Part shown: positions 1 to 60,357 of the stretch, in pieces
Layout of the letters: the number at the start of each line of letters is the position of its first letter
Numbering within the stretch: position 1 is the stretch's first letter
From: Escherichia phage vB_EcoM_Skers
Strand: one strand, 5' to 3'
Sequence record: MW748999.1
DNA: 64,000 nt
Position numbers and translations under genes: made by a program
The notes under the pieces: model-generated
Database searches by the model: none
The model's input: the letters and a program-made list of their open reading frames with translations, nothing else
Told to the model about the DNA's origin: nothing

Positions 1-36
1 GTAATAAATAAAACGGGTACTATACGAGGACTTCTT

Positions 37-291
37 ATGACAGAAGACATTTTGTTAAAACTCTATGATCGTCTGGATAACGAATTAGCAACATTGCGGG
101 GTGAAGTTCTCTATTTGTCTAAATGCAATACAGATCTGCTTAAGCAGATTGCAGAAAGGGATGACCAAATAAAATCCCTTTCAGGTGCATTACGTGATCG
201 CGACAAGGCATTAGAGATTTTACAGCGTGTTACCAATAAGGAAGAATTAAAAGACTTCTTACATGGTTATGCTCATGCTATCGATCTATAA
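37..291 (+). CDS. hypothetical small coiled-coil protein (84 aa)
   Basis: ORF track; charged/leucine-rich heptad-like sequence; followed by hairpin terminator; no family recognised. Confidence 0.45.
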   Translation: MTEDILLKLYDRLDNELATLRGEVLYLSKCNTDLLKQIAERDDQIKSLSGALRDRDKALEILQRVTNKEELKDFLHGYAHAIDL

Positions 292-292
292 T

Positions 293-324
293 AAAAAAGC
301 CCGTCAATGACGGGCTTAATTTTA
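293..324. terminator. bidirectional rho-independent terminator between convergent genes
   Basis: A-run, 7-bp GC stem GCCCGTC/GACGGGC with 3-nt loop, T-run; lies between stop of + ORF 37..291 and stop of - ORF 322.. Confidence 0.6.
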
Positions 325-1350
325 ATATGTATCAGCTAATTTAATTATGTTATCAAGTTCCGTGATTGGTAAAGTTTCTGTGTATCCATCTTTCAACATG
401 GATTTATCAACAACGCCACAATGATAAGTTCTCTTTATTTCCTTTTCAAGTTCCCACGGAATCCTGCCATCAACACTTTGTTTGACGTAAACAAGTTTGT
501 GAACAAACTTAGATTTCTGCATATGTTGTTTCATTCTGGTTTCCGGTAATTCATTGGTTACACCAAACTTTATAAATTTATCATCTAACGTCTGGATATA
601 AAAATATCCCATCTCAGATGGACGATAGCCAGAAGAACTACATTTCGGACACCCTTTAGCATTTCTATTGAACGTACAATATCTTACAGAAAATTCTGCG
701 TCATGTTTTGTACATTTAAGTTTTATCCATGAATTTGCAGTACCTATCCATTCACCATCGACACCTATATATTCATACCCTAACTTTTTACATTTATCTT
801 CTATTCTAGATAGTGCATCTTCCACGGGAACGACATATTCCGTCTTAAATTGTTCAGCCGCACATTTCTTACAACCACATGTACCATGATTTTTAAAATC
901 AAAGAACTTTGTATTCTTCCAAATATGGTCATGTTTCTTGCATCTAAGAATCATCTTAGTAACTTGTGATTTCCAGCCACCAACAAATCCCAAAAATTCA
1001 TAATCAAGATCTTTACATTTTTCTTCAATGAATTTGGTTGCTTCCTCTTCTGTCATAACTCCCCTACATTGAGGGCAACCAACAATAACCTTTTTAGCAT
1101 AGAAACTATTACTGGAAACATCATAGACAGTTCCATGCTTATTGCATTGGATAACAGATCTAGTCAATTTTCCTTTCCATTCTCCAGAAAATCCTAAGAA
1201 TGTATGGTCGACAAGTTTACACCTTTCAATAACTTTATCCGCAAATTCTCTAGGAGATTTTGTTACCTTGTTTACTCTGTATTCTATTTTTTCCGGTTGA
1301 CGAAGATAATAAACGTGGGGATTGCTCCCCACGGAATTAATATTAAGCAT
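322..1350 (-). CDS. putative nuclease with three Cys/His zinc-ribbon repeats and C-terminal GIY-YIG/T5orf172-like domain (homing-endonuclease-like)
   Basis: ORF track 322..1452; probable start at internal Met (MLNINSV) overlapping stop of upstream gene; three repeats of FLGF-G-W...C-K-H...GCP-x-C; C-terminal GYFYIQ...KFGVTN...R...H pattern typical of GIY-YIG-like domains. Confidence 0.55.
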   Translation of the reverse strand: MLNINSVGSNPHVYYLRQPEKIEYRVNKVTKSPREFADKVIERCKLVDHTFLGFSGEWKGKLTRSVIQCNKHGTVYDVSSNSFYAKKVIVGCPQCRGVMTEEEATKFIEEKCKDLDYEFLGFVGGWKSQVTKMILRCKKHDHIWKNTKFFDFKNHGTCGCKKCAAEQFKTEYVVPVEDALSRIEDKCKKLGYEYIGVDGEWIGTANSWIKLKCTKHDAEFSVRYCTFNRNAKGCPKCSSSGYRPSEMGYFYIQTLDDKFIKFGVTNELPETRMKQHMQKSKFVHKLVYVKQSVDGRIPWELEKEIKRTYHCGVVDKSMLKDGYTETLPITELDNIIKLADTY

Positions 1351-2164
1351 CCTTCCACACCTTCCTTGCATCATAGTTTTTACCTTTAGAAACAAATTTA
1401 TATGTGTTAAGGTAGATAATATTGCTCCAGTCTTTCGGGCTAATCTCAACAAGTTTTGTTTTAATGTGTCCCGGTAGATATGCTTTGATCATGTGATCAC
1501 TTCCACGCATACCTTTTACATCGCTCCATTTGATTTTTAAGCGTGTTTTATTGCTCAAGGTAGGAGTAGATGCATATTGCTTTAAAAGTGCTTCCAGAAA
1601 CTGCTGACGGGCTTTAGGTGTTACATAGTGTAAGTTAAGACCCAGCATTACAGTATTACCCGCCTTTGTCTTAGAATCACCCAGACAAATGATCAGCGGG
1701 AAAACATCCCAATATGGCAAAGTGTCTTTATACTTCGCATCATACATAAAGGTATAGATTCGCCCTACTTGCGGTTTTACAATCTGGTGTCCCTTTATTC
1801 CCGCTTTTATTGTTTTAGTAAACCACTCCTGTGATTTTTCTTTAGGACGACTCTTTGATACAGCACGCATAGACGCACGAAAATCATTAATCATCATCAT
1901 TGCGCGTTGCTGCTTATTGAGACCCTTTGCACCTTTCCCTTTTAGTTTTTCAACTTCTAATGCTGTTTTAATTTCGCTGGCATAACGAGACATACTTTTA
2001 GTGAAAGTCGCATAGGCTATTCCCTTAGAATCTGCAAATGCTTTAGCTGTCATGCCTTTGGCTTTTGCTTTCGCAAATTCTACACCCAATTCGACCCACT
2101 GTTTAGACTTTCTTTTTTGGGGAGACGGCTTTTCGTCTTCTGTGATTATTTCAAATACGCTCAT
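1343..2164 (-). CDS. 2: gp2-like DNA end protector protein (assignment by size and position)
   Basis: 273 aa, basic; sits next to gp4-like and divergent from gene 53 as in T4; no direct motif check possible. Confidence 0.5.
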   Translation of the reverse strand: MSVFEIITEDEKPSPQKRKSKQWVELGVEFAKAKAKGMTAKAFADSKGIAYATFTKSMSRYASEIKTALEVEKLKGKGAKGLNKQQRAMMMINDFRASMRAVSKSRPKEKSQEWFTKTIKAGIKGHQIVKPQVGRIYTFMYDAKYKDTLPYWDVFPLIICLGDSKTKAGNTVMLGLNLHYVTPKARQQFLEALLKQYASTPTLSNKTRLKIKWSDVKGMRGSDHMIKAYLPGHIKTKLVEISPKDWSNIIYLNTYKFVSKGKNYDARKVWKDA

Positions 2165-2175
2165 AATATTATCCT

Positions 2176-2649
2176 CTATTTGTTAAGCCCTTTAAAGCCA
2201 AACACTTTCTTTAATGCATGTTCGGTGATGATCTTAAACTCCATGTTATGCTTTTGGCATAATTTCACGGCAGCTAACCATTTTTCAGTATTTTTTGTGT
2301 ATGTCCATACTTCATGCATATATCGTTGCTTTGTCTTCGCGGTCATTCTTTTTGGCTTTTCCGGTGGCCTTGTCTCTTTAGCTGGTTTAACTTCCCATAA
2401 ATGCTCCTTGCCATCATCAAACTTAACGTAAAAATCCATAAAGTATCTGTGTCTTTTTCCGTCTGTTGATGACTCATAAGGAATTACTACGGTCTCAGAT
2501 CCCCATTTTGCAACTCTAGGATTGCGGTCTAGCCACTGCATGATCCATCTTTCCCAGCTTGAACGGTATGTGATTTTACGTATATCCCCTTTATACTTTT
2601 CCTTATTCTCAGGAACATACTTGCCCTTATAAGTGTTAGATCCTCCCAT
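2176..2649 (-). CDS. 4: gp4-like head completion protein (assignment by size and position)
   Basis: 157 aa; divergently oriented immediately upstream of gene 53 as in T4. Confidence 0.45.
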   Translation of the reverse strand: MGGSNTYKGKYVPENKEKYKGDIRKITYRSSWERWIMQWLDRNPRVAKWGSETVVIPYESSTDGKRHRYFMDFYVKFDDGKEHLWEVKPAKETRPPEKPKRMTAKTKQRYMHEVWTYTKNTEKWLAAVKLCQKHNMEFKIITEHALKKVFGFKGLNK

Positions 2650-2663
2650 TTTAGCACCCTTTA

Positions 2664-2673
2664 TTATAAATAC
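2664..2673 (+). promoter_or_regulatory. T4-type late promoter TATAAATA upstream of gene 53
   Basis: exact TATAAATA about 35 nt upstream of the gene 53 start; coordinates approximate. Confidence 0.5.
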
Positions 2674-2704
2674 ATAATACTATTTATCAATTGAGGGTGA
2701 TAAA

Positions 2705-3259
2705 ATGCTCTTTTCTTTCTTCCCTGCCATTGAATACAACGGCAAGATGATTACTGACATTGTGCGCAATTACCGCGCATATTTCAACGCAATAATTTCT
2801 GATTATAACATACAAACATATTACATTCAAGGTAGTCCACGACCGGAACAAGTTGCATATGAAGTATACGGAAACCAACAACTTTATTGGATCTTGCTGA
2901 TGCTTAATGACGTATACGATCCGTTCCATGACTGGATCACCGATCAAGAGACAGCATATGAATCAGCCGAACAACGATATGCAAACGTAGGAGGAAATCA
3001 AGTATTATACCACGTTGATATTGACGGAAACAAGTATTGGAATCTTACCGAATATCCGAAAGGATCAAGCAATTGGTATGATAAAGGGGATATTCATCAC
3101 CGTTATTTGCAGTTTCAGGGTGCATTATCGGCAGTAGACACACTGGAAGATGCGATCCTCCGTAATGAGGAACGACGCAAGATCAAGATCATAGATCCTA
3201 CACAAATTAAACAATTTATTAACGCATTCATTCGAGAAATGGAAAAGGCTGATGTGTAA
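2705..3259 (+). CDS. 53: gp53 baseplate wedge protein
   Basis: 184 aa immediately upstream of gene 5; N-terminus MLFSFF..NYRAYFNAIISDYN resembles T4 gp53 as remembered. Confidence 0.7.
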   Translation: MLFSFFPAIEYNGKMITDIVRNYRAYFNAIISDYNIQTYYIQGSPRPEQVAYEVYGNQQLYWILLMLNDVYDPFHDWITDQETAYESAEQRYANVGGNQVLYHVDIDGNKYWNLTEYPKGSSNWYDKGDIHHRYLQFQGALSAVDTLEDAILRNEERRKIKIIDPTQIKQFINAFIREMEKADV

Positions 3260-3270
3260 GGTGATTAATT

Positions 3271-5070
3271 ATGCTAATGTTTAATAACTCCGTTAAATGG
3301 TTTACCGGAATTGTAGAAAACAGGGAAGACCCATTAATGCTGGGGCGTGTTCAGGTTAGGATTCATGGTATACATCCCTCGCTATCCGCACACGGTGACA
3401 TTCAAGGTCTTCCAACCGAAGATCTATTATGGATTACGCCAGTACAAGATATTACAAGCGCGGCGATCTCCGGTATAGGTCAAAGCCCTACTGGTATTGT
3501 TGAAGGTTCAATGGTATTTGGTTTGGCTTTAGATGAACGTTATTTAAACTGCGTTATTCTGGGTACTATTGCCGGACAATATACAGAGAAACCACTCACT
3601 ACAGAAGGTTTTTGCGACCCTTCTGGTGCATATCCTCGTTATATTGGTAATGATGTTAATATTCTTGCTCGTGGCGGTATTAACCCAGAAACCGGACAAA
3701 CAACAAAACCTGATAGTGTCTATATTCGAGATGAAAACACTGGAGTTGCAGTAAATCCAGACGACGAGCCATTAGACCAAATTCCGGTTGATGATAATCC
3801 TGATTTTACAATAGAAAAAATGCTGCGGGGCGATGAGGGGTATCGCGAGAAATGGTATCTTGATTCAGAAGGATATCCGACAATAGGCATCGGTCATTTG
3901 ATCATTTATAAGAAAACCAGTGATCTTGGTATTATCAATAATGAACTTTCTAAGCTGGTAGGGCGTGAAGTTACAAACGGAAGACTTACAGCCGAAGAAG
4001 TTAGTAAAGTATTTGCTGACGATATAGAAAAGACTCGTCGTGATATGCGCAAACATCCACGAATTGCACCTGTCTATAATAAATGTAATGCCTCACGTCG
4101 TATGGCATTAGAAAATATGGCGTTTCAAATGGGTGTTGGTGGATTGGGTAAATTTAAGAATAGTCTTGCTGCGATGTTAGCGGAAGAATGGAAACAAGCC
4201 TATGATGGATTACGTCAATCTGTATGGGCTAATCAAACTCCAGGACGGTCAAGCCGTGTTTCTAAAATTATTTTAACTGGTAACTTAGAATCATATGGCG
4301 TAATTGCTCCAAAGAAAGAGGAATCAATTTCTGATGATCCGCGAGCACGTTTGAGAAATGCCCGTATTGCTGCCTATAAGACGCAGAGAGCAGAAGAAGA
4401 CCCAGAAGCACCGTTTACCCCACAAGACACACGAATCATGTTTAAAGAGCCTAAGAGTTCGTATTCTGCAAGGTATCCATATAACCATGTATACGAGTCA
4501 GAGAGCGGTCATATTATCGAGATTGATGATACTCCGTCTCATGAGCGATATCATCGTAAACATCCTTCGGGTACATTTGAAGAAACCAGACCGGACGGAA
4601 CGAGGGTAGAAAAGATCGAAGGTGATGATTATCTGATCGTTAAACAAGGCCGGAAAGTAAACGTTAAGGGTAATTTGCAAGTTGTTGTTGAAGGTGACGC
4701 GCAAGTTTATTATATGGGTAATGTGATACAAACCGTTGATGGTAACGTCACTGAATTTATTCGTGGTAATGTTAATCAGACCGTTGAAGGTACTGCTAAC
4801 ATGCATGTTGTAGGTGATGTTATCGCACAGCTTGACGCTAATTTGACGGCTAATGTCAAGGGTAATGCTGAATTAATGATCGAGGGTAACACTACCGAAA
4901 CAATTAAAGGTAACTATGATTTAACCGTTGAGGGTAATTTTAATATGACCGTCAATGGCACTAAATCAGATCAGGTTAATGGTGACTGGTCCCGTAATTG
5001 TGGTGCAAGCGTTAAAGATATTGCATCTGGTACAGTTAAAATTGATGGTAGCCGTATTGATCTTGGGTGA
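3271..5070 (+). CDS. 5: gp5 baseplate hub subunit / tail-associated lysozyme (cell-puncturing device)
   Basis: 599 aa; N-terminal OB domain; central T4-lysozyme-like segment (DEGYREKWYLDSEGYPTIGIGHLI); C-terminal V-x-G-N octapeptide beta-helix repeats. Confidence 0.9.
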   Translation: MLMFNNSVKWFTGIVENREDPLMLGRVQVRIHGIHPSLSAHGDIQGLPTEDLLWITPVQDITSAAISGIGQSPTGIVEGSMVFGLALDERYLNCVILGTIAGQYTEKPLTTEGFCDPSGAYPRYIGNDVNILARGGINPETGQTTKPDSVYIRDENTGVAVNPDDEPLDQIPVDDNPDFTIEKMLRGDEGYREKWYLDSEGYPTIGIGHLIIYKKTSDLGIINNELSKLVGREVTNGRLTAEEVSKVFADDIEKTRRDMRKHPRIAPVYNKCNASRRMALENMAFQMGVGGLGKFKNSLAAMLAEEWKQAYDGLRQSVWANQTPGRSSRVSKIILTGNLESYGVIAPKKEESISDDPRARLRNARIAAYKTQRAEEDPEAPFTPQDTRIMFKEPKSSYSARYPYNHVYESESGHIIEIDDTPSHERYHRKHPSGTFEETRPDGTRVEKIEGDDYLIVKQGRKVNVKGNLQVVVEGDAQVYYMGNVIQTVDGNVTEFIRGNVNQTVEGTANMHVVGDVIAQLDANLTANVKGNAELMIEGNTTETIKGNYDLTVEGNFNMTVNGTKSDQVNGDWSRNCGASVKDIASGTVKIDGSRIDLG

Positions 5071-5078
5071 GGTAACTA

Positions 5079-5645
5079 ATGGTTGAAATTCTTCCGATGA
5101 GTTCAAAATTGGAGGATATCAGCGAGCGAGAAATCTTTGAGGTGGTGTTCTCTTATAAAGCAACGCCACCGGATGCAAATACCACATACACGATTAAAGA
5201 GTTTAAGATAAGCGAGTATCGCCCTAATAAGGGCGTTACCGTTGAAGAAACTAAAATATCTGGTGAGTATAGGGATAGTTTTTCGCTTGGCGCGGATTCT
5301 CTTAAATATATAACGAAAGATAGAATTAAAAAATCTGCCGGAAGTTTTGATGATTTACCAGATCCAACTACCGCAGATCTATATTATTTTAACGCTCCTA
5401 CACGTCTACAGGAGGTTTATACTTATAAAGTCACCCTAACCTATATCCAATCTGTTTCAGAGTCTTCTGGTGGTTCTGGTGAAGGAAATAGTGGTGGTTC
5501 CAATATCCGAGAGGGTGCTGGTGAAACTAATCCGCCTCCGGTAGTAACCGCACACACAATAGAGAAAGTTTATACTCAAACCGTTTTTGGAAATTGGGAT
5601 GTGTGGAGTAAACAGTTAAGAGATTATGTACATAGGGGTGTTTAA
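5079..5645 (+). CDS. gp5.1-like protein (by position)
   Basis: 188 aa ORF directly after gene 5; Gly/Ser-rich segment; no motif recognised. Confidence 0.45.
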   Translation: MVEILPMSSKLEDISEREIFEVVFSYKATPPDANTTYTIKEFKISEYRPNKGVTVEETKISGEYRDSFSLGADSLKYITKDRIKKSAGSFDDLPDPTTADLYYFNAPTRLQEVYTYKVTLTYIQSVSESSGGSGEGNSGGSNIREGAGETNPPPVVTAHTIEKVYTQTVFGNWDVWSKQLRDYVHRGV

Positions 5646-6452
5646 TGGCTGGCGGGTGTCGATGCCCCGCCGTCATAAATAGTTATATAATGATTTAATA
5701 TGAGGTGTTTTATGATTAAAGTGCATGACGATTTCAAAGAACTTTATAATGTATGCTCTGAACGTTTTTATTATGATGAAACGAGCGGAACAATTAGACG
5801 AAAATATGATTGTAAGAGCAATCATTATAAAGCGGGTGATGTAGTAGGATATAAAAGAAAACAAAAAAGAACAAATAGTGAAGATGATGTGTTCTATCTG
5901 TTTACTAAGATTGATGGAGTTTCTTATTCAATTCAACAAATTGTCTTCTTGCTTACCGAAGGGTATATACCCAATTGCATCGATCACATTAACAGAGACA
6001 CACTAGATAATCACCGTGAAAATCTTCGTGATGCATCGCGAAGCGGAAATGCTCGCAATAAATGCAAGGTATATAAAAATGGTTTCGCCTCTTCCGATTA
6101 CATTGGTGTGTCTAAGCGGGGTTCTGGATTTAGGTGTCGTATTAGAATAGACCATGTTATTGCATATGATGAAACGTTCGAAAATGAAACATCTGCTGCA
6201 TATGCATATAACGTAGAATGTATAAAATTAGGTGTCAGTGAATATACCAACTTTAATAAATTTGAAGACGAAGAATCTGTTAGGAAACTTTACGAAAAAG
6301 AGAAAGAAAATAAAGAGTTTCAAGAATATTGGAAGGGAACACATAAACAGGGTAAACGATGGGGTGCTAAAGTTAAGAGTGTGCGTTTGGGTACATTCGA
6401 AACAAGGGAAGAAGCTAGACTAGCTATAATTCGCTACAAAGAGGGGTTTTGA
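5646..6452 (+). mobile_element. free-standing homing-endonuclease insertion (hairpin plus HNH-AP2 endonuclease gene) between genes 5.1 and 5.4
   Basis: HNH endonuclease gene sits between two conserved baseplate genes, preceded by GGCGGG...CCCGCC hairpin and its own SD. Confidence 0.5.
5712..6452 (+). CDS. HNH homing endonuclease with AP2-type DNA-binding domains
   Basis: ORF track 5700..6452; start moved to second ATG, which has a GAGGTG SD; HNH motif [27 protein letters not shown]; two AP2-like segments ([15 protein letters not shown] and [19 protein letters not shown]). Confidence 0.8.
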
Positions 6453-58696: not shown

Positions 58697-59173
58697 TTAA
58701 TCATGACCGTGATTTGCAATATCCGCTCGCGTCTTATCTTTGTGATTTCCTACGTCAAAGACACGATAACCATTTTCACGCAAAACTTTAATCACTTCTG
58801 GGTTATCCTCAAAGACTCCGACAACTTCATCTTTATCAAAGGATTTAATTACCTCTAATTTGATGTGATAATCTTTACGGGAATCGGTACGGCCTCTCAT
58901 AAAGATTTTATCAAAACACACCCCGTTAGAAATTAACCAATCAATTGTTTCCATGTAAGCATGTGAACTTCGTCCGGTGAGGATGTAAATCAAATGCCCG
59001 TTGTCGGAAAGAGCATTAATAACACGAATTACATCGTAAATGGGGGAATCTCCCCCACATGCCTTGTTATATTCGATCCATGACTCGACTTTATCAAGAT
59101 TTTCGGTTGGCATCTTTGCTAGTCGATGTGTTGGATCTGTGATCGTAAAATCTAAATCGACAAAATATATCAT
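58697..59173 (-). CDS. HAD-superfamily phosphatase-like protein
   Basis: 158 aa; HAD motif I FVDLDFTIT (D-x-D-x-T), ILTGRS, and C-terminal FEDNPE; follows nrdB. Confidence 0.6.
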   Translation of the reverse strand: MIYFVDLDFTITDPTHRLAKMPTENLDKVESWIEYNKACGGDSPIYDVIRVINALSDNGHLIYILTGRSSHAYMETIDWLISNGVCFDKIFMRGRTDSRKDYHIKLEVIKSFDKDEVVGVFEDNPEVIKVLRENGYRVFDVGNHKDKTRADIANHGHD

Positions 59174-60357
59174 AGATATTTACCGAATCGGTTGTAGTCA
59201 TCGTCTGTTAAATCGGTATTAACCTGAGACACCAGATACATAATCTCTACTTCTTGCGCCGCGTTTTGAACTTCGTCAGAGTTTAACCACTTACGCATCC
59301 ACGGTAACGGATGACGACGAACACTAAACGGGCTTTTCAGTCCGACAGCACGCATACGGGAATCTGCCAGGTATTCTACATAGGTTTTCAGAATTTCCGG
59401 TGACAGGTTAGGAATTGCCCCCATTGCGAATAGGTGGTCTACCCATTCTTTTTCTTGCTCGACAACATCCAGAAAGATTTTCGTTGCTTCGCCTTCAAGT
59501 TCTTCCGCAATCTGTTTCCACTCATCACCATCACCCCCCGTTTGCCATTGACGAATAATGTATTGTGTGCCTTTTAAATGAAGTTGTTCATCACGCGCAA
59601 TAAATTTCATGATCTTCGCGTTACCTTCCAGTAAACCACGTTCGGCAAAGCTGAAAGTACATGCAAAGGACACATAAAAACGGATTGCTTCCAGTGCATT
59701 GACGCAGTGTGCACACAGATAAATCGAAGCCATCAGATCTCGTTTTGTATCTTCAAAAAATCTTCTTGCATCATCTAATTCTGTCTGATCGTCTCGTTCT
59801 TCCCAATAGTGGTGGAGAACTTCTTCTTCCCAATAGCGGAGATCTTCTTTTGCATTCTCATACTTACGAATCCAATAAAGAACATCATCATAATATTTCC
59901 CGATAGATTCCGCTCGCTTCATGATAGCAGGGTTATCGATGATCTGGTCGAACTCACTAGCCGGATCAATGAAACAGTTACGCATAATGTGTGTATAGCT
60001 TCGGCTATGAATCGTTTCGCTGAATGTCCATGTTTGCAACCATGTATCGAGAGTTGGATCAGATACAATTGGACCAAATGCTGCGGACGGTGCGCGACCT
60101 TGAATAGAATCAAGTAATGTCTGATACTTCAAGTTTTCGGTAAAGAAACGCTTTTCAACGTCACCCATATTAAGATATTGTATGCGGTCGGTTGCAAGTG
60201 AAATCTCTTCGGGACGCCAGAAAAATGACAATTGCTTTTCGATCAGTTCTTCAAATACTTGATGACGCTGAATATCATAGCGAGCGATACCCAACCCACT
60301 ACCCAGAAACATCGGTTCGTTCATAATATCAACATGTTCGCGGTTAAATACGCTCAT
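59170..60357 (-). CDS. nrdB: ribonucleotide reductase class Ia small subunit
   Basis: 395 aa (T4 NrdB 388 aa); di-iron/tyrosyl radical protein pattern; continuous ORF with no sign of an intron. Confidence 0.95.
   Translation of the reverse strand: MSVFNREHVDIMNEPMFLGSGLGIARYDIQRHQVFEELIEKQLSFFWRPEEISLATDRIQYLNMGDVEKRFFTENLKYQTLLDSIQGRAPSAAFGPIVSDPTLDTWLQTWTFSETIHSRSYTHIMRNCFIDPASEFDQIIDNPAIMKRAESIGKYYDDVLYWIRKYENAKEDLRYWEEEVLHHYWEERDDQTELDDARRFFEDTKRDLMASIYLCAHCVNALEAIRFYVSFACTFSFAERGLLEGNAKIMKFIARDEQLHLKGTQYIIRQWQTGGDGDEWKQIAEELEGEATKIFLDVVEQEKEWVDHLFAMGAIPNLSPEILKTYVEYLADSRMRAVGLKSPFSVRRHPLPWMRKWLNSDEVQNAAQEVEIMYLVSQVNTDLTDDDYNRFGKYL

Follow-up and report, generated by a model that had tools for sequence, protein, structure and literature searches.

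Zinc fingers of the CapR, DUF723 or DUF4397 type, often repeated, are found in 200 of 229 T5orf172 homing endonucleases, where they always lie at the opposite end of the protein from the nuclease domain (Barth 2023, PMC10448857). CapR itself is a satellite-encoded repressor whose zinc-finger domain has been traced to the N-termini of T5orf172 homing endonucleases from phage ICP1 (Netter 2021, PMC8096241). DNA binding by the CapR finger was demonstrated by EMSA and cysteine mutants, and its cysteine pairs (CxxC...CxC), approximately 24-26 aa apart, coordinate zinc (PMC8096241). The nuclease domain is known from Odn (gp88), an origin-directed nuclease of ICP1 that provides experimental proof that a T5orf172 domain cleaves double-stranded DNA: the domain cuts DNA in vitro, and mutation of a conserved glutamate abolishes cleavage (PMC8263062). 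T4 itself has no T5orf172 genes (Barth et al., PMC10448857), and phages RB49, Phi1 and ECD7 are not mentioned in the available part of the text and supplements of that survey.

The window analysed here, a 64,000-nt stretch of Escherichia phage vB_EcoM_Skers (MW748999.1), comes from an RB49-like T4-type coliphage of the genus Krischvirus; its bases 1-3300 are 99% identical to vB_EcoM_G2248 and ECD7. Near its left end is a minus-strand open reading frame (ORF) whose limits, an ATG at 1350-1348 and a stop codon at 324-322, are exact. We take this ORF, at a probability of roughly 80%, to be a free-standing homing endonuclease gene in the CapR/T5orf172 family; the family is known and published, and this member of it is new and unstudied. 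Its cleavage activity, target site and homing, as discussed below, are predictions drawn from comparative patterns. The ORF and its immediate surroundings are as follows.

322-1350, minus strand: coding sequence of the nuclease ORF, 342 aa (ORF list; PHROG 681; nucleotide identity; RefSeq label)
1343-2164, minus strand: gene 2, encoding the DNA end protector; conserved neighbour in which the homing site is predicted (PHROG 429, E 1.6e-71; RB49, Phi1 and ECD7 annotation)
297-317, no strand assigned: bidirectional terminator hairpin at the junction of ORF130 and the minus-strand operon, the left insertion boundary (terminator scan, both strands)

The ORF product matches the PHROG 681 'endonuclease' profile (E 3.9e-79), and at the nucleotide level the ORF is 98-99.5% identical to its counterparts in seven other Krischvirus phages and 84% identical to that of Phi1. 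Phi1 ORF130.1 and ECD7 gp128 are orthologues, and RefSeq labels both 'endonuclease'; an NCBIfam search with the product gave nothing useful. ORF130.1 goes unmentioned in the text of the Phi1/RB49 comparison paper (PMC2839356).

To the right of the ORF, on the same strand, lie gene 2 and then gene 4, while to the left the terminator hairpin is followed by the plus-strand ORF130 (37-291). The gene order in relatives is 1, 3, ORF130, [this ORF], 2, 4, 53, 5, and we regard the ORF as an accessory gene that inserted between gene 2 and ORF130. The initial annotation had placed it in the position of T4 gene 3, which proved misleading: gene 3 is intact in RB49, Phi1, ECD7, MIZ4 and Cognac, where it is annotated approximately 0.5 kb beyond the left edge of the window. 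A conserved structural or morphogenetic protein that replaces T4 gene 3 is exceedingly improbable, with nothing in its favour other than a position downstream of gene 2 in the late-gene cluster. This candidate was ruled out by the presence of an annotated gene 3 in every relative examined and by the absence of the ORF from 48 of 58 related records; in addition, every match within the family is a nuclease or a zinc finger, and Pfam and PHROG profile searches for homology to gp3, the T4 tail completion and sheath stabiliser protein, found no structural-protein match.

The neighbouring genes have features of their own. The gene 4 head-completion protein (2176-2649, minus strand) matches the Pfam Tn7 TnsA-like endonuclease N-terminal domain (E 4e-21); it is noteworthy that a protein of virion completion should have a nuclease-type fold. 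Residues 1-75 of Krischvirus gp2 match a separate PHROG, 'HTH DNA binding protein' (E 1.4e-26), and this module of about 75 aa is N-terminal to the DNA-end-protector part of the protein encoded at 1343-2164 (minus strand). Cognac has an extra 340-aa ORF without a Pfam match between genes 2 and 4, on the opposite strand (Cognac positions 4949-5971, plus strand), which may be a further mobile insertion into this small region.

The ORF product divides into three N-terminal repeats and a C-terminal domain.

1057-1269, minus strand: CapR repeat 1, residues 28-98, with C44, C69-x2-H72 and C92-x2-C95 (CapR E 0.0019; DUF723 E 0.0021)
835-1056, minus strand: CapR repeat 2, residues 99-172, with C112, C137-x2-H140 and C160-x2-C163 (CapR E 1.7e-7)
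625-834, minus strand: CapR repeat 3, residues 173-242, with C187, C213-x2-H216 and C234-x2-C237 (CapR E 3.4e-7)
325-624, minus strand: T5orf172/MUG113-type GIY-YIG nuclease domain, residues 243-342

That the protein contains three tandem repeats had been recognized in the initial annotation, and their similarity is real and beyond chance. The whole protein matches the Pfam CapR homology domain (PF21817; model length 67, gathering cut-off 24.2 bits) in three stretches with 55.3 bits (E 7.4e-15). Each repeat also matches CapR when isolated, repeats 2 and 3 above the cut-off (31.7 and 30.8 bits) and repeat 1 just below it (18.8 bits). When repeat 2 was used as a tblastn query against the whole window, repeat 1 (E 7e-10, 34% identity) and repeat 3 (E 1.8e-8, 38% identity) were recovered. 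The same approach found no paralogue of the ORF in the 64 kb; a weak C-domain match at 60229-60330 was dismissed as noise, being on the wrong strand and inside a long conserved ORF (59170-60357).

The repeats recur with a period of 68 and 75 aa rather than the 45 or so first reported, a figure that covers only the core from FLGF to CxxC. Each has an FLGF/YIGV-G-W motif (at residues 51, 119 and 194), a C-x2-H (69, 137 and 213) and, after 19-20 aa, a C-x2-C (92, 160 and 234), which together with an additional conserved cysteine in the preceding helix (C44, C112 and C187) gives four or five candidate zinc ligands. Across 29 aligned homologues, C137, C160 and C163 of repeat 2 and C213 of repeat 3 are invariant, and C234 and C237 are conserved in at least 90%. 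The AF2 model folds each repeat as a helix, three strands and a helix, with the last cysteine pair at a helix N-terminus, and related repeats match Pfam DUF4379, 'Probable Treble clef zinc finger'. Because of the DUF4379 matches and the modelled placement of the cysteine pair, a treble clef is a better fit than the zinc ribbon originally proposed; the description as Cys/His zinc-finger repeats, of the CapR type, holds, but the fingers are probably of the treble-clef kind. A predicted role for the repeats as zinc-binding, DNA-binding modules is supported.

The C-terminal domain had been described as nuclease-like and of the GIY-YIG superfamily, with T5orf172 explicitly named, and transitive Pfam matches and invariant motif residues bear this out, with the domain being of the T5orf172 type. 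Conservation within the family peaks in the segment GYFYIQ...KFGVTN...R...H (residues 249-276). The residues proposed for catalysis are Y251, K261/G263, R272, H276 and E302, along with a D321-G-Y-T-E325 motif; Y251, K261, G263, R272, E302, D321, G322 and E325 are invariant in alignments of 29 and 18 sequences. The domain is assigned the beta-beta-alpha-beta-alpha core of the GIY-YIG fold, with Y251 on strand 1, K261-F-G263 on strand 2, R272 at the catalytic arginine position of helix 1 and E302 at the metal-binding glutamate position of helix 2; the second motif tyrosine is replaced by lysine, likewise across the family alignment. The R-x3-H of helix 1 (R272/H276) presumably resembles R27/H31 of I-TevI, and E302 would by position, rather than by computed alignment, be equivalent to I-TevI E75 and Odn E180. 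The I-TevI equivalences are positional because no meaningful alignment came out of hhalign when the C-domain profile was compared with a catalytic-domain sequence of I-TevI.

Pfam searches gave no direct match to T5orf172 (PF10544) or MUG113 (PF13455), whether with the whole protein (E<=1) or with the C-domain alone (E<=10). However, when 18 homologous C-domains with 23-46% identity to this one were excised, 11 matched T5orf172 (best E 1e-7) and nine matched MUG113 (best E 5.5e-8); membership is therefore transitive. Full-length homologues (27-35% identity, approximately 90% coverage) bear the NCBI name 'GIY-YIG nuclease family protein'. The only match of the C-domain itself within the GIY-YIG clan is to PF01541 (14.5 bits, E 0.045, below the threshold of 22.6), with residues 249-286 in register with profile positions 3-40. 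A Seg/Tev-type (canonical PF01541) enzyme was rejected given this sub-threshold score, the reversed domain order and the non-significant hhalign result. A PDB sequence search with the whole protein returned only a chance match to GspE (E 1.4), and one with the C-domain profile returned no match. Foldseek yielded only noise for the full-length model (pTM 0.38), because its domains are flexibly linked, and no significant hit for the C-domain, with the GIY-YIG entries BH0048 and Slx1 at ranks 2-3 (E about 1). Since the C-domain Foldseek search was not significant and hhalign failed, the fold assignment is moderately, not overwhelmingly, supported by structure alone.

Relatives of the product were found by tblastn in 467 phage records, among them phage T5, ICP1 tcgB and a Krischvirus gene 32 paralogue. 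Although the protein had been called unusual, its architecture is the norm for the published family of homing endonucleases that combine CapR/DUF723 fingers with a T5orf172 domain (PMC8096241, PMC10448857). ICP1 gp174, gp165 and tcgB likewise have one to several N-terminal CapR/DUF723 fingers and a C-terminal T5orf172 domain; tcgB, annotated as a 'putative homing endonuclease', is 26% identical over residues 108-342 (E 1e-6, tblastn). Like the Skers ORF, the ICP1-type genes are free-standing, adjoin essential genes, vary between close isolates and exchange DNA-binding repeats between alleles. The Skers ORF differs from them in its host, a T4-type coliphage (Krischvirus), in its first zinc knuckle, which is C-x2-H rather than C-x2-C, and in a start codon borrowed from within gene 2.

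Full-length homologues also include the T5 'RB49ORF238c-like protein' AAX12067.1 and the ORF238c-type endonuclease BN201_0241 of GEC-3S (29-32% identity over 92-99% of the query; E 1e-25 and 6e-32, tblastn), which have two to four CapR stretches. Unlike the Skers ORF, the T5 gene lies upstream of pb2 and the Krischvirus gene downstream of gene 32, and their repeat numbers differ from that of the Skers protein; both are paralogues, and neither is the same insertion as the Skers ORF. The GEC-3S gene (2267-3445, plus strand) encodes a 392-aa paralogue of the RB49 ORF238c type with four CapR stretches, immediately downstream of gene 32. In T4 the position downstream of gene 32 is occupied by segG, which encodes a GIY-YIG homing endonuclease.

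With T4 Seg enzymes and I-TevI the Skers protein shares a catalytic superfamily and a predicted lifestyle, but it has a lysine for the second motif tyrosine and uses CapR fingers in place of NUMOD/HTH modules for DNA binding. The reversal of domain order relative to Seg/Tev pointed out in the initial annotation is confirmed, with CapR repeats N-terminal and the nuclease domain C-terminal. Odn belongs to the same nuclease domain family, although its DNA-binding module is of the RepA_N type rather than the CapR type.

The ORF is distributed patchily. Across 58 matching Krischvirus records compared for its presence, it was found in 10, representing eight phages (ELT3, ECD7, Cognac, FL37, FL38, pEJ01, G2248 and Phi1) among about 50 near-identical genomes, and was absent from 48, including RB49. 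Three features delimit the insertion and its flank.

316-320, no strand assigned: left TTAAT direct repeat, within ACGGGCTTAATTTTA at 310-324, an imperfect 15-nt repeat (RB49 empty-site alignment)
1337-1341, no strand assigned: right TTAAT direct repeat, within ACGGAATTAATATTA at 1331-1345 (RB49 empty-site alignment)
1343-1412, minus strand: recoded 3' end of gene 2, the last ~23 codons, predicted to be a cleavage-resistant variant of the homing site (RB49 mismatch mapping)

Compared with the empty site, the insertion is 1021 bp long and is bounded exactly by the ORF130/gene 2 terminator on one side and the gene 2 stop codon on the other; in RB49 that stop codon directly follows the hairpin equivalent to 297-317. 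The empty site is precise, with RB49, MIZ4 and kvi aligning base-for-base outside the insert, and the GC content of the insert is 0.34 as compared to 0.38-0.41 in its neighbours. The 15-nt boundary repeats match at 12 of 15 positions, and each includes the 3' arm of a hairpin. A GC-rich hairpin also precedes each of them and a T/A-rich run comes after it, an arrangement reminiscent of the stem-loop cassettes through which modules are proposed to be shuffled in Phi1/RB49 (PMC2839356). The terminator may have been the recombination site used in the original invasion.

The end of gene 2 beside the insertion diverges sharply from RB49. The window has 66 mismatches to RB49 in 3470 aligned bases, of which 22 fall within 78 nt (1335-1412) and 44 in the other ~3390 nt, that is, 28% divergence at the gene 2 end and 1.3% elsewhere. 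Most mismatches in this block are 3 nt apart, and only five of the last 23 residues of gp2 are altered. In the seven other carriers of the window-type allele the gene 2 end is 100% identical to the window, while in 39 gene-less records it is RB49-type (75-78% identity). Three recombinants, MIZ4, MIZ5 and kvi, lack the gene yet have the carrier-type end. Their crossovers lie between the stop codon and the recoded block but at differing bases, a pattern that would be expected for co-conversion tracts or loss events.

The T4 endonucleases SegF and SegG are encoded by intergenic free-standing genes, cut the neighbouring conserved gene in relatives without the nuclease and co-convert flanking markers. 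The classic footprint of such enzymes comprises a sensitive site in the neighbour gene of empty genomes, a resistant recoded site in carriers and partial co-conversion tracts. The Skers locus has a presence/absence polymorphism at a single locus with a precise empty site and a divergent flanking tract, and by analogy its recoded gene 2 end would be the usual homing footprint, with the RB49-type sequence at the gene 2 3' end as the predicted target. The recoded flank could also have arrived once, together with the insert, by ordinary recombination with a diverged donor. For a homing endonuclease, we envisage that during co-infection the repeats would bind the RB49-type gene 2 3' end of a gene-less genome and the tethered GIY-YIG domain would cut nearby. 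Recombinational repair off the carrier genome would then copy both the nuclease gene and the recoded, cleavage-resistant gene 2 end into the recipient.

Two alleles of the gene are known among the carriers, and its reading frame is intact in all eight phages. Relative to the window allele, that of Phi1 is a mosaic, at least 97% identical at the nucleotide level over residues 1-75 and 236-342 but only 48-78% identical over residues ~80-235, which cover the end of repeat 1 and repeats 2 and 3. In the latter segment dS is saturated (~2) with a dN/dS of 0.18, and dN/dS between the alleles is 0.12-0.18 per segment. The gene 2 end of Phi1 is a third variant, such that the window and Phi1 alleles each adjoin their own distinct variant of its last ~27 codons. 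The mosaic agrees with the repeat shuffling known for T5orf172 homing endonucleases (Barth 2023, PMC10448857), and suggests, speculatively, that repeats 2-3 carry target specificity. That the two alleles amount to a natural retargeting experiment, in which the repeat 2-3 module was swapped beside distinct gene 2 ends, is a tentative and on balance doubtful proposal.

The swap of repeats 2-3 is also reminiscent of arms-race genes, and with the purifying selection on both alleles it would suit a domesticated derivative of a homing endonuclease that does a job of benefit to the phage instead of homing. Such a protein could be a CapR-like DNA-binding regulator, an I-TevI-like autorepressor or an Odn-like nuclease directed at a satellite, a competing phage or host DNA. 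There are precedents in CapR, a domesticated finger domain of the T5orf172 homing endonuclease family (PMC8096241), and in Odn, a domesticated T5orf172 nuclease (PMC8263062), and Barth et al. caution that sequence alone is insufficient to infer homing (PMC10448857). We nevertheless consider domestication unlikely. CapR lost its nuclease domain, whereas the Skers protein keeps all nuclease residues; its DNA-binding module is CapR-type and not the RepA_N type of Odn; and patchy occurrence at one fixed intergenic site beside a recoded neighbour gene end is the signature of a selfish element.

The 5' end of the gene bears on how it is expressed.

1309-1350, minus strand: N-terminal extension of 14 codons, to an ATG within gene 2 (ATGCTTAA overlap, 1343-1350) (homologue alignment; pLDDT)
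1314-1333, minus strand: terminator-like hairpin in codons 6-12, immediately after the gene 2 stop codon (terminator scan; RNA centroid fold)

The ATG lies in another frame inside the last codons of gene 2, AAG GAT GCT TAA. The first 14 codons are regarded as an extension to this ATG because distant homologues begin at the position of residue ~14 (MLVRQ.../MEIRF...); residues 1-8 have pLDDT <50 in the AF2 model. The hairpin has an 8-bp stem with six GC pairs and a 4-nt loop (CGUGGGGA-GCAA-UCCCCACG, followed by UUUAUUAU), is retained in the RNA centroid fold and is identical in Phi1. On the minus strand upstream of the ORF we found neither a T4-type late promoter (TATAAATA) nor a convincing sigma-70-like promoter, and given this and the hairpin the nuclease gene may be poorly expressed. 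Transcription that reads through from gene 2 into the nuclease gene is probably attenuated at this hairpin, and translation of the nuclease gene may be coupled to that of gp2. Expression of the putative homing endonuclease would thereby be held low by the overlap of its ATG with the gene 2 stop and by the hairpin, through read-through and translational coupling, a damping typical of selfish nucleases.

A hairpin in the 5' coding region of a gene for which no promoter of its own was found could equally belong to a decaying relic that invaded once, now cuts nothing and is being lost or passively carried. The minority distribution of the ORF is compatible with this, and MIZ4, MIZ5 and kvi, gene-less but with the carrier-type gene 2 end, could be deletions. 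Such decay is very unlikely, however, in view of a frame that is open in 8/8 carrier phages, the retention of every family-invariant residue and a dN/dS that stays at 0.12-0.18 even across repeats 2-3, which are highly diverged and saturated for dS.

Elsewhere in the window (5700-6452, plus strand) is a second free-standing homing-endonuclease-like gene, located between gene 5.1 and the PAAR gene 5.4, whose 250-aa product matches Pfam HNH_3 (E 8e-8) and, weakly, AP2. It is missing from RB49 and Phi1 and occurs in only six records (GEC-3S, G2494, Whisky, JEP8, W115), none of which has the gene 2-side endonuclease; Skers therefore combines two patchily distributed nuclease genes.

Collectively, these data indicate that the correct label for the ORF is CapR/T5orf172-family homing endonuclease, rather than 'hypothetical protein' or a gene 3 substitute. 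Beyond annotation it matters little, and its value to specialists is modest: it documents the CapR/T5orf172 family in T4-type phages, with a clearly delimited candidate target in the gene 2 3' end. The predicted sensitive and resistant alleles and the recombinant ones are present in sequenced, culturable phages (RB49, ECD7, Phi1, kvi and MIZ4), so a clean homing cross or cleavage assay would be easy. If repeats 2-3 do read the gene 2 end, then three end alleles and two finger sets would provide a first map of CapR repeat-to-sequence recognition; the locus would also exemplify a homing endonuclease in pursuit of an escaping target, with the hairpin in its borrowed 5' end as a built-in expression throttle. 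The swapped-repeat allele pair could help to show how CapR repeats read DNA.
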